Sequence record: OR776998
Source: Escherichia phage YX22
Direction: 5' to 3' (one strand)
Length of the DNA: 64,000 nucleotides
Part shown: piece by piece, positions 3,941 to 63,672 of the stretch
Position numbering within the stretch: the stretch's first letter is position 1
Layout: the number at the start of each line of letters is the position of its first letter
The notes under the pieces: generated by a model
What the model was told of the DNA's origin: nothing
Seen by the model: the letters and a program-made list of their open reading frames with translations, nothing else
Databases searched by the model: none
Position numbers and translations under genes: made by a program

Positions 3941-3952
3941 TATAAATATCCC
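3941..3952 (+). promoter_or_regulatory. Late-promoter-like element TATAAATATCCC on plus strand
   Basis: Exact T4 late core TATAAATA followed by CCC, about 32 nt upstream of the plus-strand ATG at 3984 (RBS AGAGGAA). Confidence 0.5.
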
Positions 3953-3983: not shown

Positions 3984-4751
3984 ATGGCACCCCGCGCATA
4001 TCGTTTCAGTCTCACCGCCCCGCAGATTGAGCAATTGCTCCTCTCTATCTATGATGCTATCAAGTCAGAAGATATCATCTATGATTATGCTGCAGGTGGG
4101 ACTGCTGGACAAGTCGCAGCAGCTTCTGCTGTCAAGAACATGTGGTTGAAGCTCAACGAGATGGTGACAGGCCAAGGTCTCAAAGATGCCATCAACGATG
4201 CAGAAGACAGCAACGTGTTCACCGACTATTATAAGTCTTTACTGGATCGCGAAGGCTGGAAATTTATTGGATCTCCAGCAGATGAACTTCAGCGAGGCGA
4301 CATCGATACCTCGAACTTCAAAGGTGGTGAGGTCATTCTACTTCAGAAGAACGCTTCAGGCAACCCAGAATTCCAATACTGGAAGCGAACCCCTGTTGCT
4401 GGGGGTGATCCTACCTTTGCATGGGCTTCGGTCTATGAAGGGAACTCTAATGATTCCAGCATAGAGATTCCCGTGGTTGGCACCAGCGTACTCAAGGACA
4501 TCCCCAAGGCACTCTTCCATATGATCGAGTTCAGAGTGCATGTCTACGATGAGACACTGGGTCATTGGCAAGACACCGACGGGAAGGTGGGGTATCGTGG
4601 CGAGGATCTGATCTACAGTGTATACAACCATATTCAGACCAAACCTCTCGCCACCATTGACTTCAGCCAAGATACGGACAATATGACGGTTTCTGTGACG
4701 TCGTTGGAACCGAATGTCAAGTGCCATCTGTCCTTCGTTGCGGGTTACTAA
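3984..4751 (+). CDS. Hypothetical protein, probably late-expressed (possible virion protein)
   Basis: Internal ATG at 3984 (MAPRAYRFSLTAPQIEQ...) preceded by AGAGGAA and the late-promoter-like element. Protein-like composition, while the N-terminal extension of the track ORF is antisense to the RNase HI gene. Lone plus-strand gene in a minus-strand block. Confidence 0.55.
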   Translation: MAPRAYRFSLTAPQIEQLLLSIYDAIKSEDIIYDYAAGGTAGQVAAASAVKNMWLKLNEMVTGQGLKDAINDAEDSNVFTDYYKSLLDREGWKFIGSPADELQRGDIDTSNFKGGEVILLQKNASGNPEFQYWKRTPVAGGDPTFAWASVYEGNSNDSSIEIPVVGTSVLKDIPKALFHMIEFRVHVYDETLGHWQDTDGKVGYRGEDLIYSVYNHIQTKPLATIDFSQDTDNMTVSVTSLEPNVKCHLSFVAGY

Positions 4752-9117: not shown

Positions 9118-9444
9118 TTAACCCGAAACTTTATTTTGAAATCCGACAAAGTCCTGGGCAATTCCCCGGCAATACATCAGGTCTTTCTTCGTTTGTGGAC
9201 TGTTGTCAGCCGCAGTCAGCATCATGGGAAGATCCAGCGCATTCTCTATCTGATCAACACTGAACAGATCAAGGCGCTTCAGCTCTCCCTCGAAGTCAGA
9301 CAGGAGGATAGATGTGTCTTTGTCATCTGGGTGGAACTGCTGATACGTCTCCATCCATGCCACACATGTGTTCAGTTTGGACGGTGGCGCAGCGTTTACA
9401 CACCCGGCTATCAGTACCAACAAGAGCAGGATTTTACATTTCAT
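9118..9444 (-). CDS. Putative lipoprotein
   Basis: ATG at 9444 gives MKCKILLLLVLIAGCVNA: signal peptide with lipobox IAGC; 108 aa. Confidence 0.5.
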   Translation of the reverse strand: MKCKILLLLVLIAGCVNAAPPSKLNTCVAWMETYQQFHPDDKDTSILLSDFEGELKRLDLFSVDQIENALDLPMMLTAADNSPQTKKDLMYCRGIAQDFVGFQNKVSG

Positions 9445-10130
9445 CACTCGTTCTCCTTCATCATATTGTCGCAGTCAACACGAGTCTGCTGGAGTTCGCG
9501 CGACATGCGGGGATCATCAAGGTTCACGCTCAGATTCGTGGCCAGGTCTTTCAGACCGTTCTGAACCCTGTCTTCAAAGTAATAATCGTTCTCAACCAGC
9601 CAGGCTCTGAGACCGAGAGCGCGAGTACGCCATTCCTTCTTCAGGACGCGATCAGAGGTCTGCGTAGCGCTGTATTCGAATACTTTGATGCACTGGTTGC
9701 CATCGTTGATAAGGTTCAGGTGGCGGCGACCAACCTGCACACCCTTCTGTAATGCCGGAGAAGGGAGCGAACGGCACTGTCTTACGGTCATTCGGCCTTG
9801 GGTGCCCATTCGGCCAGTCATGATCAAATCGCCAGCCTCCATGCCGCCTCGATTAAATTCATCGTCATTGAGGTAGCCCTTGAGGTTATAGGCTCCCTGT
9901 TTGTAACGGTTGAACTCAATTCCGGCATTGACGACAGCAGTGGAGACGTTGCCTGTGTTCCAGAGTTCAGCGAAGTTCTCTATGGAACCAGACTTGTCGA
10001 TGGCAACCGCCTGAGAGAACCCAGCACAATAGGAAAGGTCGGACCACAGTTTATCACCTGTGGAGTTCAGCTTGGCAGCGGCGGGTAATGCCAGACCAGC
10101 CAGCACAACCCCGAGGATTAAACGTTTCAT
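9444..10130 (-). CDS. Putative secreted/periplasmic protein
   Basis: Internal ATG at 10130 gives MKRLILGVVLAGLALPAAA (cleavable signal peptide); 228 aa; 1-nt stop/start overlap with the downstream lipoprotein gene. Confidence 0.5.
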   Translation of the reverse strand: MKRLILGVVLAGLALPAAAKLNSTGDKLWSDLSYCAGFSQAVAIDKSGSIENFAELWNTGNVSTAVVNAGIEFNRYKQGAYNLKGYLNDDEFNRGGMEAGDLIMTGRMGTQGRMTVRQCRSLPSPALQKGVQVGRRHLNLINDGNQCIKVFEYSATQTSDRVLKKEWRTRALGLRAWLVENDYYFEDRVQNGLKDLATNLSVNLDDPRMSRELQQTRVDCDNMMKENE

Positions 10131-10209: not shown

Positions 10210-10659
10210 TCAGAAACGGGTGTCGCTGACCGTTCTGTATCGCACACCCTGAAACTGTTTAGCGAGTTTAACAAATTCCATCGCTGGCAAATCAACTTTG
10301 TAGACCTTCATGCGCTGTTTGCCGTCCATGTTCAACGCAGCGACAAATCGGTGAGAACCGTCAACAACGTAATTGTCAGAAGACACCCAAACTCGACCCA
10401 TAGGTTTCTTATTTCTGATCTGCTTCATGATCTTCCAGACCTTCATTTTATTGATTTCGTTCTGGGTAAGACGAAGCATTTTGATGGGCACTTGCACAGC
10501 ATCTATGGACACGCCGTTGTCTTCAAGATATTTGTGAAAATCTTCTTGTTTGTCGGCATCGATTTGTGGCATAGAAGAACGAGAAAGCCCGAGGTTCCCA
10601 ACAGGAATCCTCAGGCCGTTAATGATGTTCAACCAGTCAATAAAAGATGTAAGGAACAT
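10210..10659 (-). CDS. ParB-like nuclease (ParB/Srx N-terminal domain) protein
   Basis: 149 aa; VQVPIKMLRLTQNEIN...YVVDGSHRFVAA resembles the ParB N-terminal domain signature (DGxHR); GAGG 7 nt upstream of ATG. Confidence 0.45.
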   Translation of the reverse strand: MFLTSFIDWLNIINGLRIPVGNLGLSRSSMPQIDADKQEDFHKYLEDNGVSIDAVQVPIKMLRLTQNEINKMKVWKIMKQIRNKKPMGRVWVSSDNYVVDGSHRFVAALNMDGKQRMKVYKVDLPAMEFVKLAKQFQGVRYRTVSDTRF

Positions 10660-10691
10660 GACATACCTCGGGATATAGGGTTATCCCTTAG

Positions 10692-10883
10692 TTAGCGCAT
10701 CCATCGATCCTTTCTCTCTTTCTCCTTGCGTTCGCGACGTTTCTGGTCGGATCGGAATAACCAATAGAAGAAGTTCCCACCCAAGATGAAAACCACCGCG
10801 ATTATTACTAGGACACCCTTCACAATTTCCCAAACCAATTCTTTATCCAAATTATACCTCGTCTTCTTCAGGTCCACCGTCAA
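10692..10883 (-). CDS. Possible small membrane protein (TTG start)
   Basis: 63 aa ORF with hydrophobic helix VLVIIAVVFILGGNFFYWLF and basic tail; first codon is TTG, no SD, overlaps the upstream gene by 32 nt. Confidence 0.25.
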   Translation of the reverse strand: MTVDLKKTRYNLDKELVWEIVKGVLVIIAVVFILGGNFFYWLFRSDQKRRERKEKERKDRWMR

Positions 10884-11139
10884 TCAGGATACGAGCGGCG
10901 TCGAAAGTTTCCCCGCCCGTGTTCAACAGCTTGGTTAGATCATCAAGAGTACCGACAGGACCAAGATCAGCCTGGCGGAGAACGAACTCGAGAAGCCCGT
11001 AGAGCGCTGATTGGAATCGGCTGTTATCGATATCGTTCTTTATTACCATCAGGCGCAAGATGTTCTCTGACTGAGTATGGTCAACACACGCCTTGTCTCT
11101 GATCATCTCCTTGATAGAACTTCTCTCTGATGGTGTCAT
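10852..11139 (-). CDS. Hypothetical protein
   Basis: 95 aa, ATG start forming an ATGA overlap with the stop of the upstream gene. Confidence 0.4.
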   Translation of the reverse strand: MTPSERSSIKEMIRDKACVDHTQSENILRLMVIKNDIDNSRFQSALYGLLEFVLRQADLGPVGTLDDLTKLLNTGGETFDAARILIDGGPEEDEV

Positions 11140-11510
11140 AACGTACCCCCGACAGAGATCAAGAACTCTTCTTGCATGGTCTTGACCGGGTGGTGGTTGC
11201 GGGTTTCGAACATGAAGCCCCAGCCACCGTCGGCGACGTTGCCAAAGGTCTTGACGCCAAAGGACTTCGTCCCGTTAGAGCAGGAATAGATGTCCAGGAC
11301 GTATGGGCTGCCCTGATTGTCGATCCCACGATTCACGTCGTCTGATACGCAGCGCTCAATCATCTTCCCGTTCTTATACAGAACGAGGTCTTGGCCATAC
11401 GCCTTGAAAGCATAAACACCGTTGGTAGACACTCCGGTGATGACAGGAGGGGCGGAAACAGCAGCAAAGGAAGCGCCCAGCAGGGCAACAGCGAGGATTA
11501 ACTTTTTCAT
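11136..11510 (-). CDS. Putative secreted protein
   Basis: Internal ATG at 11510 gives MKKLILAVALLGASFAAVSA (signal peptide) immediately after GAGACTATATC; 124 aa. Confidence 0.5.
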   Translation of the reverse strand: MKKLILAVALLGASFAAVSAPPVITGVSTNGVYAFKAYGQDLVLYKNGKMIERCVSDDVNRGIDNQGSPYVLDIYSCSNGTKSFGVKTFGNVADGGWGFMFETRNHHPVKTMQEEFLISVGGTL

Positions 11511-11890: not shown

Positions 11891-11927
11891 CCCCTAAAAG
11901 TAAAAATCCCCAACGTTTTGTTGGGGA
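11891..11927 (-). terminator. Rho-independent terminator downstream of the ACP-like gene
   Basis: On the minus strand: stem TCCCCAAC/GTTGGGGA with 5-nt loop followed by TTTTTACTTTT. Confidence 0.6.
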
Positions 11928-11933
11928 CTTCTG

Positions 11934-12257
11934 TTATTTGCGCAGGGCAACCACGAGTTCAGCGAGTTCACCCATGGTCGGGTCATCACCTTTACTACCC
12001 AGCCAACCGTCGTCGATTTCGACCTGAAACTCTTCTTCTAGTTCCATTACGATTTCGATGGCATCCAGTTCGTCACCGCCGAGGTCTTTCTTGGTACGGA
12101 GGCCAGCCAGCTTGTCCAGGGCGTCCTCGTTCTGAGATGCCACGTCGTCCAGCAATTTGCGCTTGTCATCGTCACGCCACAGATCCAAGTTCAGATTGTC
12201 AGTGGCGTACTGAGCCAGATGACGCATGACTTCAACATATGTTGGTTTGCTGCTCAT
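11934..12257 (-). CDS. Acyl carrier protein-like protein with Ser-to-Glu substitution at the phosphopantetheine attachment site
   Basis: 107 aa; C-terminal 55 aa align with E. coli AcpP helix II: phage DLGGDELDAIEIVMELEEEFQVEIDD versus AcpP [26 protein letters not shown]. Codon checked by hand: gac gaa ctg gat = D E L D. SD GGGAGAAG 6 nt upstream of ATG. Confidence 0.65.
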   Translation of the reverse strand: MSSKPTYVEVMRHLAQYATDNLNLDLWRDDDKRKLLDDVASQNEDALDKLAGLRTKKDLGGDELDAIEIVMELEEEFQVEIDDGWLGSKGDDPTMGELAELVVALRK

Positions 12258-12299
12258 GCTACTTCTCCCAAAGAAAGGCGGGTTGCCCCGCCCGTTGGA

Positions 12300-14501
12300 T
12301 TATATTTTGATTTCTTTCTCTGTCAGTTCGGCAGTGACCTTGTACTTCACCCCATCCACTTCAACTTCCATGGTGGACTCTTCCAGGTCGAGGTCGGTGA
12401 ACCAGCCATGGCCAGCAACGATACCATACACCACTTTAGACAGTGTCTTGTTCAGGGCGCGGACTTCGGTGATGGCCGCCTTGGCAGCAGCGTCGATCCA
12501 GTTTTCGATCAGATGTTTCTGTAAGGATTCAGGCACGGCAGTGATCATAGGAGACTTCACGAATGCTTCGTACTCCTTCAGCGCATTGGCGATGAACAAG
12601 TCACCAGCATTGAGTTTCTTGTTCTCGGCAATCTTCTTCTGTACCGCTGCGATAGACGGTAGAGATGAAGCGCCAGCGATCTTCACGTTCAGCTCACGGC
12701 TCATGTAGAAGTCGGTAGACTCTTTGGTCTCAGTCTTCGGTGAGAAGCCGTAATCGCGGATGCCGTAGGAGGACAGGAACTCGGCCGCCTCAGCGCCGTA
12801 CTGTACTGCCAAGCCTTTGGCGTTACCCTTACCAACCAGGGCGTCTCGATAGAACTTCAGCACCTTCTGCTTGCCTTTCAGGGCTTCCAGACGGACATTA
12901 TCCGCAAAGAACTGAGCAGCACTGATGTTCTTGACCATGGCGCGGTTGACCAGCGGTACGCTTTCCAGGTTCAGGACAAACACTTCCGGACCACCAAACA
13001 CGTGGACACCCATTTCGATCAGCTTATGCACGACTTCGATATCAGCCTTGAACGGCAGAGTCTTCACGTTAATGATACCGTCTTTGACGATGGTGTAGTT
13101 GCGCCACTGGAAAGTATCCAGTTCTTCAGGCAGACCGAACTTCTTCTGTGCGAATTCAGGCACAGCCACAGTACCGTGTTGAATTGTACGCACACTGATG
13201 TTCGGGCGCTCGGAGTTATAGACCAAATCGCTGATTGGCACAACACCCAGGTCGTTGGTAGGTTCGAACGTCGGGTTCCACTCTTCGTGTTCTGCCAGCT
13301 TGAGAGCCAGTGCTTTACGCTCTTCTTTGGACTGAGCGTTCGCGATCTGTTCTGCCAGCTTGTCTTCGGTGTCGTCGGTTTTCTGCACAGTACCGCGCCC
13401 GATGCTCTTATAGGAGAACATCGGATGCTTGGTAGCAACAGGCACACCAGCTTCAGCCAGGTACGTCAGCACATCAACGACGGTGGTCGCATCTTCAGCC
13501 GGAACCAGGTCATAGTCAATACCGTCAACGCCGCGCAGCTGGTCGTCAACAATCGCCTGAACCAGATCGTTCTTGATGTTGGAGTAGTCCTGCTTGGTGA
13601 AGCAGTTGCTGTACTGTTTGATGAAGCGAACGTCGCCCGTTTTCTTCAGTGCAGCCCACACCAGGTCCGCGTCCATGATGTGTACGCCGTAGAACGCCAG
13701 CACGTATGCCGCCTGGATGTCCGCCAGCGCATCAAGCTGGTCGATCATGTTAGGGTTTACAACCCACAGCTTGGTGACGCTCTCAGGGATGCTCACATAG
13801 CCGACCGGGTGAGAGTCATCGTCCTGCACCGCCAGTACTGTTGCCACACCGTTTTCGACGTAGATGGCATGGGTGTAGATGACTGGGACATCAACTTTCA
13901 CCTTCGGCACTGATGACTTCAGCACGTTTTCCAGTTCGGTCTGGTATTCGGTCTGACCTTCAGCAAACACGTGGGTCGCACCGGAGCGCTCAGACATCAG
14001 AGCTAGCAGTTCGCGGTTACAGTACCAGCCATATTCGATAAATGTAATGTTATCGAAAGCAAATGGCAGGGTCTCAGCAACCAGTAGAATTTCGTTGGTA
14101 CGCCAGCAGTTGTCATACCCGTCAGTCATGAACGCCAGGTTGTTGACATAGCCAGGTTTCTTCAGGTCACGCGCAGTATCCATCGCCAGTTTCAATGGCT
14201 CAACGAAACCAGTACAGCCGGATGGTTGCAGGAAACGGTCGATCAGTTTGTTCAGCTCGCTCAGGTCAGACGCAGCACTAACCTGGCGGCCAGCGAACAC
14301 AGTACCAAAGTCGCCTTTGGAGGAGAAATACAGAACGCTCACAGTGTCTTCCGGCTTCACCAGGGATGGCAGGTTCTCCTTCAGGTGCTTGCGGACTTCA
14401 GGGAGCGCACGGTACATAGAGCCGGAAATGTCTACAACGATTACATGGTTGGACGGAGCAGCAGTCGCAACCGCATTCTTAAATTCTAATGATTCAATCA
14501 T
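12300..14501 (-). CDS. von Willebrand factor A (vWA/MIDAS) domain protein, 733 aa
   Basis: ATG at 14501 (MIESLEFKNAV...); N-terminal vWA signature VIVVDISGSM (DxSxS MIDAS), G/T-containing loop, FMTDGYDN; roughly 500 aa C-terminal region of unknown fold. Confidence 0.7.
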   Translation of the reverse strand: MIESLEFKNAVATAAPSNHVIVVDISGSMYRALPEVRKHLKENLPSLVKPEDTVSVLYFSSKGDFGTVFAGRQVSAASDLSELNKLIDRFLQPSGCTGFVEPLKLAMDTARDLKKPGYVNNLAFMTDGYDNCWRTNEILLVAETLPFAFDNITFIEYGWYCNRELLALMSERSGATHVFAEGQTEYQTELENVLKSSVPKVKVDVPVIYTHAIYVENGVATVLAVQDDDSHPVGYVSIPESVTKLWVVNPNMIDQLDALADIQAAYVLAFYGVHIMDADLVWAALKKTGDVRFIKQYSNCFTKQDYSNIKNDLVQAIVDDQLRGVDGIDYDLVPAEDATTVVDVLTYLAEAGVPVATKHPMFSYKSIGRGTVQKTDDTEDKLAEQIANAQSKEERKALALKLAEHEEWNPTFEPTNDLGVVPISDLVYNSERPNISVRTIQHGTVAVPEFAQKKFGLPEELDTFQWRNYTIVKDGIINVKTLPFKADIEVVHKLIEMGVHVFGGPEVFVLNLESVPLVNRAMVKNISAAQFFADNVRLEALKGKQKVLKFYRDALVGKGNAKGLAVQYGAEAAEFLSSYGIRDYGFSPKTETKESTDFYMSRELNVKIAGASSLPSIAAVQKKIAENKKLNAGDLFIANALKEYEAFVKSPMITAVPESLQKHLIENWIDAAAKAAITEVRALNKTLSKVVYGIVAGHGWFTDLDLEESTMEVEVDGVKYKVTAELTEKEIKI

Positions 14502-14709
14502 TGTTCTCTTCGCCTTGTGCGTAAGGGTTAAGTTCAGACTCATCAGCGGCTTCGATGCGCGTCTTTACAGAGTCCAGCATATTGTTGATAAACTCACGAG
14601 ACTGCTCCAGCTGAGCCAAGAGCACATCCTTTGGAGCATAGTTCTGAATGCAAGCCGGAATACTTTCAGACGTCGCCTTCAGGTCGGTAAAACATTCTTT
14701 CAGTATCAT
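14494..14709 (-). CDS. Hypothetical small acidic protein
   Basis: 71 aa ORF with ATG start; first gene of the three-gene cassette; its stop lies 2 nt before the vWA start. Confidence 0.4.
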   Translation of the reverse strand: MILKECFTDLKATSESIPACIQNYAPKDVLLAQLEQSREFINNMLDSVKTRIEAADESELNPYAQGEENND

Positions 14710-18839: not shown

Positions 18840-20858
18840 TTAGAACACAACTTTCACAGTGCGGTTGAACGAACCGCTCACCTTCACGAACACGTGGTTG
18901 CGTTGGGTGGTAGAGAATCCCAGACCGGACAGCTGCTCAGTGCTTGGCTGTACTTTAATCTTACCACCTAACATTTCAAAAACCTTGCGGTGTTTATCAA
19001 GTTCCGGCTTCAGATATTCGTTATAGAAACCACGGGTGCCGACAGGGTTAGCACAACCTTCCAGGATGAAGAACACGTGCTTGTTGCCAGTCTGCTCGCC
19101 GTCCCAATGGTTTGGTGAGTTCAGAACCAGCTGTACCTTCTGGAAGACGGAGGTCTTGATGCCCCAGATTTCCTGAGAGCGAGCGTCGTCTTTCAGGGTA
19201 GAACGGATGTCTACCACTTGTCCAGCGCGGACATCAATCACAACAGCCAGAGTGCGATCTTTGTGCTTCAGGCCAGGATGCGAAAAACGCTTGGTCTGGC
19301 CTTTGTATTCAACTTCGATTTCGAAACCAACGTCACAGGTTTCACGCTTGTTGAAGTTAGTGACATAGAACTCGTACAGACCATCACGCAGCTTGCGTTC
19401 ATCGCTGAAGAAGATGTTCTCCACCGGGCGGCGGTTGGGATCAATGCCGTCCATACCGTTCATGTCGATATCCAGGGTTGCGCCAGTTGCCGAACGACGG
19501 TTGTGATAATACACGTGGTTGTGAAGAGGATCGTTCAGGCTCAGATCCAGATCGTCGTTGTTATGCCAAGCCAGTGACACACGGAGGAAGCTGTCGACAT
19601 TGCCGCCTGCGGTCTTCACGCGCTCTTTGATGGAGTCGGCCACTTCGCCATTGTACGACCAGCTGAAGCCGTTGTTCCACTTGAACAGGTTAGGAGCGCC
19701 TGCGGTGGCCGGAGCGATCAGGGACATCAGGTTGCCAATGTGAGAGTTTTCGACCAGCACTTCCAGGGAATGCGCCTTTGGCAACACGTTGGTCAGGAAG
19801 TCGTCGATCGTGATCTCTTCAACCTTGTCCAGGGACTTGGTCGGAGTCTTCACTTCAGACGCCAGCTGAGCAAACGGGTCCATCTTCTTCTGAGCTGCTA
19901 GGTCGGCGAACAGAACGTTGTTGATGGTCAGATCGTCATACACGGCATAACGGCGACCCAGTGAATCAGTCAGACCCAGCGCTTCGACTTCTTTCTGCGC
20001 GTTTTCAATCATCGACTTCGTGACCAGCGCGGTTGGGCGCTTGTAGTTCGTCGGAGCGACTTTGGCTTCAAAGGACTTCACGGCGGTTTCCAGATCCCGA
20101 CCTTCATTGAGGTCTACCAGCAGAGAGCCAATCACGGTATTACGAATGCCGTGAGGGGTATGACCGTTTGCACGGTAGCCAGTGCGCCAAGCCCACAGAG
20201 CGCGTTTCTCTTCTGCAGTTTGTTCGTACAGGGTCTTGTTCACCACGAACGCCTGCACTGCCGCTTTGTGCTCTTCACCGCGATACAGAGAATTCTGGTC
20301 AATCAATTCCAGAACGATTTCAGCCGATTCCAGAGACAGTTCACGCAGGCCGCGCTCAAACACTTCAATCGCCTGGCGGATTTCACCCTTCTTAGAAGCG
20401 ATGGTATCTGCCCGCAGAACATAGCTGCTCAGCAGGTCGGTGTGGAAGTGGTTGTAGGTGCGGACAATACCGTCTTTCATTTCGTGATTCGACCCAACAC
20501 CAACTTTCTTGGTGTCGTTGAAGTACACATCGACGATTGCGTGCTGCTTAACATATGCTGACAGCGCCGCAGCGACAACGTCGTATTCGTTACCCAGCTG
20601 AATGTTATCCCAGATAGAGATCACGTTCAGGTCGGAGTCGATGGTGACCACACCGCCGATATTACGGATGAATTGTTTACAGCAGGTACAGTCGTGCTCG
20701 GTACGCTCACGATAAAGCGGGTTAGTGCCAGCAGGGAAAGAAGACAGATACAGATCCCACAGAGCATCTTTATCGATGTTGGTCATGAACAGACCAGTTG
20801 CTGACATGGCCAGCACATTGTTGTTAACAGCTACTGCGAAGGGCTTAAATTCTGACAT
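18840..20858 (-). CDS. Hypothetical large protein (672 aa), function unassigned
   Basis: Long minus-strand ORF with ATG start and protein-like composition; the matching plus-strand ORFs look like antisense artefacts. No motif assigned with confidence. Confidence 0.6.
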   Translation of the reverse strand: MSEFKPFAVAVNNNVLAMSATGLFMTNIDKDALWDLYLSSFPAGTNPLYRERTEHDCTCCKQFIRNIGGVVTIDSDLNVISIWDNIQLGNEYDVVAAALSAYVKQHAIVDVYFNDTKKVGVGSNHEMKDGIVRTYNHFHTDLLSSYVLRADTIASKKGEIRQAIEVFERGLRELSLESAEIVLELIDQNSLYRGEEHKAAVQAFVVNKTLYEQTAEEKRALWAWRTGYRANGHTPHGIRNTVIGSLLVDLNEGRDLETAVKSFEAKVAPTNYKRPTALVTKSMIENAQKEVEALGLTDSLGRRYAVYDDLTINNVLFADLAAQKKMDPFAQLASEVKTPTKSLDKVEEITIDDFLTNVLPKAHSLEVLVENSHIGNLMSLIAPATAGAPNLFKWNNGFSWSYNGEVADSIKERVKTAGGNVDSFLRVSLAWHNNDDLDLSLNDPLHNHVYYHNRRSATGATLDIDMNGMDGIDPNRRPVENIFFSDERKLRDGLYEFYVTNFNKRETCDVGFEIEVEYKGQTKRFSHPGLKHKDRTLAVVIDVRAGQVVDIRSTLKDDARSQEIWGIKTSVFQKVQLVLNSPNHWDGEQTGNKHVFFILEGCANPVGTRGFYNEYLKPELDKHRKVFEMLGGKIKVQPSTEQLSGLGFSTTQRNHVFVKVSGSFNRTVKVVF

Positions 20859-20973: not shown

Positions 20974-22194
20974 TTATTCAGGTTTCTTCAAACGGTCCAG
21001 CAAATTGACGGAACCACGTTTGAGCACGACTTCATCACAGCGCTTTTTGTATTCCCCACCGCCGTCATATCCAACCTTCCCGCGCGGTTTTTTACCTTTC
21101 TGTATGGCCTCTACACAACGGGTGTACTTGCTCAGTTCACAGAACATGTTCTCCAGCTGCATAACGTTCATGCACTGATCTACAGGCTCTTCGGCCGACC
21201 AGAATTTCTCGCGAACATACCCATATTGGGAGTACACTGCGTCCTGGTTGTCCCGTAGCCAGAAGATGCATTCTTCGTGGGTCATGCCATCTTTGTCCTG
21301 GAACATCAGATCAATCCCTGCGCGACAGCCTGGTCCAGCAACCGTGAAGTGGTTCTCACTGAAAGGATATCCAGGAATGTACGTGAAATCAACCCAGATC
21401 TGGTAGGCCAGGAATGGACCAAGCCCTTCGATGTCGTCATACATGCGCTGGTATACTTCCAGAGGAGTACCAAGGCGCAGCAAGTCATGGAAATAGTTTG
21501 GATACTTGTTGGCGAATGCCTTCAGGGAACGGATAACACGCATTGGCATGTACGGCTCCCAGCCTTCTATGGTGTAGAAGTCCGGCTCTGCTTCAGCAAT
21601 AGCCTTGGCTTCCTTATAATCCATGTTCTGGGTCGAACCGTCCTTACAGATCAGGTTCACCATCATCCCACCGAAGCGCTGCTCTTTGTGGTTGACAACC
21701 AACTCAGGGAAAGCCAGGCATTGCTTCAGACCACCTGTGTTGAAGGCATTGGTGAATACTTTACCGCCGTCGGCCTCGAACTTCTGAAGTCGTTCGCGGG
21801 TTGCGTCAAGGTTGATCTTGGCGAATTCTTTGATCGTCATCGCGCCGCCGATAGCCTGAATTGGATCCCAGAGGTTGAACATGCGAAACATCACGCAGTT
21901 GAACATCTTGTCGGCCATACCCAGAGCATCGTTGTTGACGATGTTGTTGATCAGGTTGAGAGACTGCCTGTCGTGCTCTCTCCGGACGTTACAGAACTTG
22001 ACCTGCCGTAATATGGAATTATCAGTCCAAGGAGCAGGAAGGCGCTGGACGTCCTTCTTGACGTGGATCTGATAACGATCGCGCATCCATTCGTAAGACA
22101 GGCAGGTATGGGTCGGACTGAGAACCGGTTTGGCCGACTTTATCTTTTCTTCACGGACACCGCAGTACGGGACGTCTAGGGCTTTATCTTTCAT
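20974..22194 (-). CDS. Hypothetical protein (406 aa), function unassigned
   Basis: Long ORF with ATG start; no confident motif; possibly a nucleotide or DNA-modification enzyme (speculative). Confidence 0.55.
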   Translation of the reverse strand: MKDKALDVPYCGVREEKIKSAKPVLSPTHTCLSYEWMRDRYQIHVKKDVQRLPAPWTDNSILRQVKFCNVRREHDRQSLNLINNIVNNDALGMADKMFNCVMFRMFNLWDPIQAIGGAMTIKEFAKINLDATRERLQKFEADGGKVFTNAFNTGGLKQCLAFPELVVNHKEQRFGGMMVNLICKDGSTQNMDYKEAKAIAEAEPDFYTIEGWEPYMPMRVIRSLKAFANKYPNYFHDLLRLGTPLEVYQRMYDDIEGLGPFLAYQIWVDFTYIPGYPFSENHFTVAGPGCRAGIDLMFQDKDGMTHEECIFWLRDNQDAVYSQYGYVREKFWSAEEPVDQCMNVMQLENMFCELSKYTRCVEAIQKGKKPRGKVGYDGGGEYKKRCDEVVLKRGSVNLLDRLKKPE

Positions 22195-38223: not shown

Positions 38224-38250
38224 GATTGTTTCCTTCTGAACGATTTTCAG

Positions 38251-38258
38251 TATTTAGT
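38251..38258 (-). promoter_or_regulatory. Late-promoter-like element (CACTAAATACTG) upstream of gp22
   Basis: CTAAATA core about 28 nt upstream of the gp22 ATG. Confidence 0.4.
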
Positions 38259-44516: not shown

Positions 44517-44526
44517 GATATTTAGT
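44517..44526 (-). promoter_or_regulatory. Late-promoter-like element (GATCACTAAATATC) upstream of gp18
   Basis: CTAAATAT core about 45 nt upstream of the gp18 ATG, between the gp17 stop and the gp18 start. Confidence 0.45.
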
Positions 44527-60229: not shown

Positions 60230-60293
60230 AGAGGATTTGCCAATATGGGGTATTTAGTCTGAACTAATAAATTTATGAACAAAGGTATAACAA
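60218..60293. repeat. Repeated promoter cassette (copy 1), about 75 bp
   Basis: Near-identical to 63597-63672: ...ccaatatggggtatttag(t/g)ctgaactaataaatttatgaacaaaggtataacaag; contains the late-promoter core and a 9-bp inverted repeat ATACCCCAT/ATGGGGTAT spanning the tailspike start codon. Confidence 0.8.
60245..60257 (-). promoter_or_regulatory. Late-promoter-like element CAGACTAAATACCCCAT
   Basis: About 20 nt upstream of the tailspike ATG at 60229. Confidence 0.5.
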
Positions 60294-63596: not shown

Positions 63597-63672
63597 AATA
63601 CCCCATAAAGGATGACCAATATGGGGTATTTAGGCTGAACTAATAAATTTATGAACAAAGGTATAACAAGAA
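63597..63672. repeat. Repeated promoter cassette (copy 2)
   Basis: Near-identical to 60218-60293; here the small plus ORF is reduced to a 33-codon remnant running into a hairpin. Confidence 0.8.
63621..63633 (-). promoter_or_regulatory. Late-promoter-like element CAGCCTAAATACCCCAT
   Basis: About 30 nt upstream of the tailspike ATG at 63593. Confidence 0.5.

Follow-up and report, generated by a model that had tools for sequence, protein, structure and literature searches.

A ParB/Srx-fold protein of Escherichia phage YX22 with orthologues in virions: a candidate injected, nucleotide-dependent effector from an uncurated phage family

Introduction

The N-domains of the chromosome and plasmid proteins ParB, Noc and KorB, which bind CTP or CDP, share their core fold with sulfiredoxin (Srx). 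Known DGHHR-type phosphotransferases include Srx, SerK and SbnI. Among phage proteins a close counterpart is DdrB of phage P1 (PF18763; PMC5512222), whose phage-confined ParB/Srx-fold domain occurs alone or in polyvalent proteins and is found close to late or virion genes. DdrB travels in the P1 head, and a late promoter drives the P1 dar operon as one transcript with lysis genes. A second point of comparison is given by the T4-type internal proteins (Ip1–3 and relatives) and Alt, which are packaged in the capsid and injected as anti-defence or host-modifying proteins; Ip1–3 are injected inhibitors of GmrSD enzymes (PMC12373910). Proteins that a phage carries in its virion are at work ahead of all phage gene expression; functions are known for very few of them.

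Here, we describe a 149-residue protein of Escherichia phage YX22 (sequence record OR776998), analysed within a stretch of 64,000 nucleotides (the window) in which position 1 is the first letter. It has the core fold of canonical ParB, Noc, KorB and sulfiredoxin, with the phosphate-binding turn at the same position. Unlike canonical ParB, it has neither a helix–turn–helix (HTH) nor a C-terminal dimerization domain, and DGSHR stands in place of GERRxRA; no box III of the ENLxR type was seen when the boxes were mapped by eye. It does not match PF08857, the family of ParBc_2 proteins (e.g. Atu1540; PDB entry 2hwj), and it lacks the C-terminal domain of SerK and SbnI. Like P1 DdrB, its family is phage-confined, found alone or in polyvalent proteins and near late or virion genes, and its gene precedes spanin-like genes; the two families have no significant sequence relation, the motif being SGNGR in DdrB and DG(H/S)HR here, and the R-x-x-M-P-Q arm belongs to the present family only. 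With the T4-type internal proteins it shares small size, basic character and presence in virions, whereas the known Ips are non-enzymatic inhibitors without a ParB/Srx fold. Papers on the SNIPE nuclease and on T4 Ips were followed up as leads on ParB and discarded; in them ParB is an imaging tool only or refers to host GmrSD.

The assignment to the ParB/Srx superfamily is already known, and a ParB/Srx-fold protein in virions is already present in databases and papers; the family itself is uncurated. What is new here is the definition of a large sister family that has a distinct motif and stands apart from the DdrB-like ParB domains, its fusions to Acb1, statistically supported CTS (capsid-targeting) tags and evidence for a late promoter.

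Results

The gene and its neighbours

The window comes from an Ackermannviridae phage of the ViI/Kuttervirus-like kind, and the region of the gene is 98% identical to Enterobacter phage fGh-Ecl02 and Escherichia phage A221. The ORF with DGSHR and LRLTQNEIN reported in the preliminary description is present (Table 1). A full-length orthologue was found in 275 phage records at E ≤ 1e-60, and dN/dS values of 0.03–0.06 were obtained against the orthologues in Guerrero, ViI and Dickeya phage JA15; the gene is real and under strong purifying selection. A search for related loci with a narrow alignment returned almost exclusively Ackermannviridae-like genomes. There is no paralogue within the 64-kb window.

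Table 1. Features of the ParB/Srx-fold gene of phage YX22 and its surroundings (window positions)
Feature	Position	Strand	Basis or remark
Lipoprotein with lipobox (LIAGC), 109 aa, downstream	9118-9447	minus	matches Rz-like spanin PHROG
Signal-peptide protein, 228 aa, downstream	9444-10130	minus	sequence
CDS, ParB/Srx-fold protein, 149 aa, 17.3 kDa, pI 9.9, zero Cys	10210-10659	minus	ATG 10659, stop 10210
DGSHR, residues 100-104	10348-10362	minus	strand-to-helix turn
LRLTQNEIN, residues 62-70	10450-10476	minus	first core strand; ends in near-invariant Q66 and E68
R27-S-S-M-P-Q-I33, family-specific N-terminal arm motif R-x-x-M-P-Q	10561-10581	minus	conservation in family
Amphipathic N-terminal helix, residues 2-15	10615-10656	minus	structure model
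Conserved upstream block, begins with late-promoter-like CTAACTA (10689-10695)	10660-10695	minus	orthologue comparison
RBS GAGG, 7 nt before ATG	10667-10670	minus	sequence; invariant in 6 orthologous loci
Small membrane protein, upstream	10692-10883		sequence
Signal-peptide protein, upstream	11136-11510		sequence

Signal-peptide and lipoprotein genes surround the gene on both sides, as had been described. The neighbourhood differs between phage groups and is not kept in distant phages, so that gene context offers no functional clue. The two genes immediately downstream form a putative spanin pair with a 4-nt overlap. The 228-aa member is annotated as i-spanin in Marshall and Guerrero, matches only a PHROG of unknown function and has an apparent cleavable signal peptide (LPAAA followed by KL) where a membrane anchor is expected. 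By analogy with phage P1 dar and lydA plus lydB, the 149-aa gene may be co-transcribed with these spanin-like genes. An annotation as 'RNA polymerase ADP-ribosylase' in this region belongs to a separate gene that is inserted in some relatives and absent from YX22.

Fold and relation to curated families

At the fold level, structure comparison places the protein in the ParB/Srx superfamily (an α/β core with a strand, a G-x-x-R helix turn and four strands), with matches to the N-domain of CTP/CDP-bound ParB, Noc and KorB. The model has a strand at residues 97–100 and helices at 102–111 and 2–15; D8 in the latter is conserved at 90% or more. The core ParB/Srx domain spans residues 50–140 and a family-specific N-terminal arm residues 17–58. 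The likeness to ParB/sulfiredoxin N-terminal domains that had been proposed from the motifs is thus borne out by structure comparison, but profile searches against the PDB lent it no significance: the protein alone and a 20-sequence profile gave noise only (vWF, MAGE), and with a 61-sequence profile SerK and 1vk1 ranked first, at non-significant scores.

None of the curated ParB families that were searched accounts for the protein. PF02195 (ParB_N) was not matched at E ≤ 10, and matched one of 61 relatives at E 0.032; the 2025 survey of the ParB-CTPase fold, which was seeded with PF02195, would therefore not have included the family. PF08857 (ParBc_2; gathering threshold 23.6 bits) did not match it either. 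Twenty of the 61 relatives gave sub-threshold PF08857 hits (best E 5.4e-5) and the tandem-domain relative P0191 scored 29 bits; judged from these scores, ParBc_2 looks like a borderline sister family. PF18763 (DdrB-like ParB) gave weak matches to three of 61 relatives (best E 0.014), and hhalign of the family against P1 DdrB returned a probability of 0.08; P1 DdrB itself scores 2e-39 on PF18763. A sulfiredoxin is excluded by residue content: the catalytic Cys of GGCHR is absent, with Ser or His in its place, and the protein has no Cys at all. When the family profile was aligned with the free serine kinase, the invariant Q66 fell on the catalytic base E30 of SerK (E ~0.4, a non-significant alignment); the kinases SerK and SbnI use a catalytic Glu where this family apparently has Gln. 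The C-terminal substrate domain of SerK and SbnI is absent.

The orthologue in Klebsiella phage phi1_146021 (PP889471.1, 36276-36656) is annotated as 'cytidyltransferase'. This label is likely a mis-annotation, probably transferred from phrog_3041, a 678-position profile in which the ParB/Srx domain is the C-terminal part (positions 559–675).

Family size and conserved residues

An exhaustive search at E ≤ 1e-3 gave a family of 2,581 representative clusters. In a set of 170 divergent domain copies, 72 belong to solo proteins no longer than 200 aa, 55 to proteins of 200–500 aa and 43 to proteins above 500 aa; 12 proteins carry more than one copy. The near-invariant positions are R27, P31, Q32, Q66, E/D68, K73, S93, D95, D100, G101, H103 and R104. 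Within the DGSHR turn, D100 is kept in 98% of the 170 copies, G101 in 99%, H103 in 98% and R104 in 89%. Position 102 is His in 74% and Ser in 16%; with His the commonest residue there, the family motif is the classic DGHHR. Q66 and E/D68 are kept in 97 and 89%, respectively. Among the copies that bear the residue, R27 and P31 are conserved in 155 of 155 each and Q32 in 153 of 155, and the lengths of the fold-hit alignments suggest that this R-x-x-M-P-Q arm is absent from canonical ParB, Srx and SerK. So many conserved polar residues at ~30% identity indicate an active site, and the fold predicts that phosphate would be bound by the DG(S/H)HR turn.

Presence in virions

Orthologues of the YX22 protein are present in virions according to two independent proteomic studies. 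In phage LIMEstone1 the orthologue (HE600015, 73878-74327) carries the GenBank note 'confirmed structural protein'; the LIMEstone1 paper reports five unique peptides and 35.6% coverage for an unknown structural protein of 17.31 kDa, and states that all 12 unknown structural proteins have ViI structural counterparts. CsCl-purified virions of Sajous1 yielded 11 spectra of gp192, which is 98.7% identical to the YX22 protein; baseplate proteins gave similar numbers. In ViI, the orthologue Vi01_117c bears the annotation 'phage associated protein'.

Transcription

The gene had been placed in an early accessory region. The proteomic data on its orthologues together with a late-promoter-like element 30 nt upstream contradict this label, which is not supported. 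Near the gene there is no copy of the T4 late promoter consensus TATAAATA, and a simple scan for σ70 promoters and terminators gave chance-level results. Upstream of structural genes, CTAAATA(C/T) occurs in nine exact copies between 28.7 and 63.6 kb, on the coding strand only (1.95 expected; none of 100 shuffles reached nine). These copies (28731-63633, minus strand; e.g. 38250-38257, 44518-44525, 60250-60257 and 63626-63633) lie mostly 20–35 nt before start codons, and the element looks like the −10 element of YX22 late promoters, a variant of T4 TATAAATA. The major capsid and portal genes have the position-5 variants CTAAGTA and CTAATTA at 25–32 nt before the ATG.

Within the first 23 kb, CTAANTA occurs once, as the CTAACTA that lies 30 nt before the ATG of the 149-aa gene. 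Six orthologous loci from three genera (Kuttervirus, Agtrevirus and Limestonevirus) share an invariant block that begins exactly at CTAACTAAGGGATAA, and the sequence further upstream is unrelated. CTAACTA, a one-position variant of the motif, is thus a suggestive candidate for the late promoter of the gene; the total count of the degenerate motif shows no enrichment, so the case for a dedicated late promoter is suggestive and falls short of proof. No Kuttervirus transcriptome was found in the literature. An exact T4-type TATAAATA is present at 3941-3948 (plus strand), ~36 nt before the only plus-strand structural gene here (~3984-4751); the LIMEstone1 orthologue of that gene is confirmed by mass spectrometry (MS), and its annotated late promoter reads GATATAAATATCC.

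Domain fusions and capsid-targeting tags

The domain is also a module of polyvalent proteins. In the 3,164-aa protein of Ralstonia phage Claudette, which adjoins virion structural genes, it occupies approximately residues 1084–1192 beside SLT, LPD3 and LPD38 domains, a combination that fits the definition given by Iyer et al. for polyvalent proteins (PMC5512222); 43 of the 170 copies lie in proteins larger than 500 aa. Fusion partners include an AAA_33/zeta-toxin-type kinase, GNAT, cytidylyltransferase with Hint, RelA/SpoT and a region matching a head-maturation-protease PHROG. In four clusters, the anti-CBASS phosphodiesterase Acb1 (57–75 bits; cutoff 27) is followed by the ParB/Srx domain with all motifs intact.

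Three of the four Acb1 fusions start with MKTYLQFIAES, MKTYVEFIAES or MKTYSQFLVEN. The T4-like internal protein Ip9 of IME08 starts with MKTYQEFIAES, and ordinary Acb1 with MKTEDFAQGLY. In IPIII the first 10 residues suffice for head targeting, with residues 4 and 7 acting in targeting and 8 and 10 in cleavage (PMC9026906). A loose test for an [LI]xE propeptide was discarded, as its 23 of 123 positives were at chance level (~19% expected by our own estimate). It was replaced by a strict positional test with shuffles, in which a CTS of ~10 residues had to be hydrophobic at positions 4 and 7 with (I/L)-x-E at 8–10. This pattern was found in 20 of 183 diverse relatives, including solo proteins with the tag directly before the domain; shuffled N-termini gave 0.68 ± 0.82 (maximum five in 2,000 shuffles) and internal-Met controls predicted 1.4. 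Twenty tagged relatives against ~0.7 expected make deliberate packaging into the capsid a recurrent trait of the family.

Many homologues thus carry a propeptide of the form MKT(Y/F)xx(F/I)(I/L)xE. The YX22 protein has no recognizable T4-type propeptide; it starts with MFLTSFIDWL and has no Glu before residue 39. Its N-terminal helix sits where many homologues have the propeptide, and a role in targeting is speculative. In YX22, [LI]xE motifs are found in the scaffold and the prohead protease.

Natural fusions of CTS, Acb1 and ParB/Srx domain are represented by the proteins P0214, P0210, P0209 and P0206 (locus L043, 8001-8894; JGI metagenome contig Ga0642623_00855), and both HxT motifs of the 2H fold are visible in P0214. 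These fusions imply an anti-CBASS effector that is packaged in the head and injected. No full fusion of this kind occurs in the cultured phages of the collection.

Discussion

The reading that best accommodates these data is a nucleotide-dependent enzyme delivered by the virion at the onset of infection; taken as one package, we consider this somewhat probable. The gene product would be made late in infection and incorporated into the virion, from which it would most likely enter the next host cell along with the DNA. A conserved nucleotide-binding pocket is probably formed by the family-specific R27/Q32 arm together with Q66/E68, S93/D95 and DG(S/H)HR, the last at the N-terminus of a helix. 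The pocket would bind a nucleoside triphosphate or a nucleotide-derived molecule, leading to hydrolysis or phosphoryl transfer, and the effect would be host takeover or the blunting of a nucleotide-based defence ahead of phage gene expression. That the substrate is a nucleotide or a small molecule is favoured by the nucleotide-centred fusion partners and by the phosphotransferases with DGHHR-type motifs; these partners are a theme of the family and do not define the substrate of the 149-aa protein. We group the protein, as a candidate, with the phage effectors, injected or polyvalent, that are based on the ParB/Srx fold.

The main competing reading, which we regard as possible but unlikely, keeps the 'ParB-like nuclease' of the preliminary description: a DNA nickase or DNase regulated by NTP and without sequence specificity, or a DNA binder gated by NTP, that is delivered with the genome and targets DNA of the host or of competitors, or else the ends of the phage genome. 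The protein is very basic, and its pI of 9.9 fits a DNA-directed role equally well; the conserved acidic residues D95, D100 and E68 could bind metal. Among ParB/Srx relatives, Osa, Bce_0392 and GmrS are reported as DNases/NTPases, and an NTP-regulated DNase activity is predicted for the DdrB-like ParB domains in polyvalent proteins that are packaged (PMC5512222). Yet its 149 residues hold neither a DNA-binding HTH nor a second nuclease domain, the fusion partners mostly metabolize nucleotides rather than cut DNA, and Iyer et al. favour NTP sensing or degradation as the key function (PMC5512222). A CTP-dependent sliding clamp of the canonical ParB type, the other role suggested at the outset, or a partition or centromere-binding protein has the shared N-domain fold in its favour and is rejected on architecture, as the protein is a single domain without the parts needed for DNA recognition and dimerization and without a PF02195 match, DGSHR replaces GERRxRA, and the phage is lytic with no parA annotated in the syntenic 50 kb; we give it almost no credence.

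Two further readings explain the virion data without an injected enzyme. The protein could be a non-enzymatic structural or DNA-condensing component, internal to the head or in the tail or baseplate, that reuses a ParB/Srx scaffold. The 'structural protein' annotation from proteomics and the basic pI agree with this, as does the homologue in Stenotrophomonas phage BUCT608, whose gene immediately precedes one for a baseplate hub. A scaffold is not expected to keep near-invariant polar residues in the canonical nucleotide pocket among ~30%-identical homologues, and the domain also serves as a module in multi-enzyme polyvalent proteins and in Acb1 fusions; we consider a structural role improbable. 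Thymidine is hypermodified in ViI-like phages and in PhiW-14, and both carry the 149-aa gene. An activator of or accessory to thymidine hypermodification, found in virions only by sticking to DNA, would fit this distribution, the presence of aGPT-Pplase1 ~10 kb away and a 2026 paper in which phage ParB-fold proteins activate 5mYOX T-dioxygenases in T-hypermodification clusters (PMC13229309). The gene nevertheless has no adjacent modification genes, the 5mYOX activators are PF02195 proteins with a C-terminal dimerization domain (PMC13229309) that is absent here, homologues occur in many phages and polyvalent proteins without such a link, and the CTS tags on homologues argue for deliberate packaging; we consider this reading very improbable.

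Beyond the injected nucleotide-dependent enzyme itself, a bolder extension, which we hold to be rather unlikely, would make the 149-aa protein the founding solo member of a large and uncurated family, whose ParB/Srx enzymes are delivered by the capsid and have a new activity directed at nucleotide-based immunity. Such an activity would consist, for example, in phosphorylating, hydrolysing or sequestering cyclic-nucleotide or NTP-derived signals, or in poisoning DUF262/GmrS-type NTPase restriction enzymes that attack modified DNA. If this were true, delivery from the virion would neutralize defence before any phage transcription, and the CTS-Acb1-ParB/Srx fusions would be two-pronged injected anti-signalling effectors.

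Among the 275 Ackermannviridae-like records of the collection searched are phages considered for therapy or biocontrol of Salmonella, E. coli O157, Klebsiella and Dickeya, and the family of ~2,600 clusters has been missed by current Pfam models and by the 2025 survey of the ParB-CTPase fold. Virion proteomics, CTS tags, fusions to Acb1 and other nucleotide enzymes, and polyvalent proteins turn a 'hypothetical protein' into a testable candidate for an injected anti-defence enzyme, and the misleading annotations 'early', 'partition protein', 'nuclease' and 'cytidyltransferase' are corrected.

Other features of the window

A 747-aa protein with a von Willebrand A domain (vWA) is encoded at 12300-14543 (minus), followed by an acyl carrier protein (ACP) at 11934-12257 (minus). 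The vWA orthologue is MS-confirmed in LIMEstone1 virions (six peptides), making this a second unusual virion protein, ~2 kb upstream of the 149-aa gene. At the end of the vWA gene (12276-12326, minus) is a σ70-like promoter, CTGACA-16-TATAAT (11 of 12 consensus positions), immediately followed by a GC-rich hairpin, and a strong palindromic terminator-like hairpin follows the ACP gene at 11907-11927. By synteny with Guerrero (coordinate offset alone), the 406-aa ORF at 20974-22194 (minus) would be aGPT-Pplase clade 1, a thymidine hypermodification enzyme; it adjoins a 672-aa protein annotated as 'DNA-directed RNA polymerase' (18840-20858). Compared with Guerrero, YX22 has ~3.5 kb extra between the 149-aa gene (10659) and the major capsid gene (37289), with offsets of 67,618 and 64,059.
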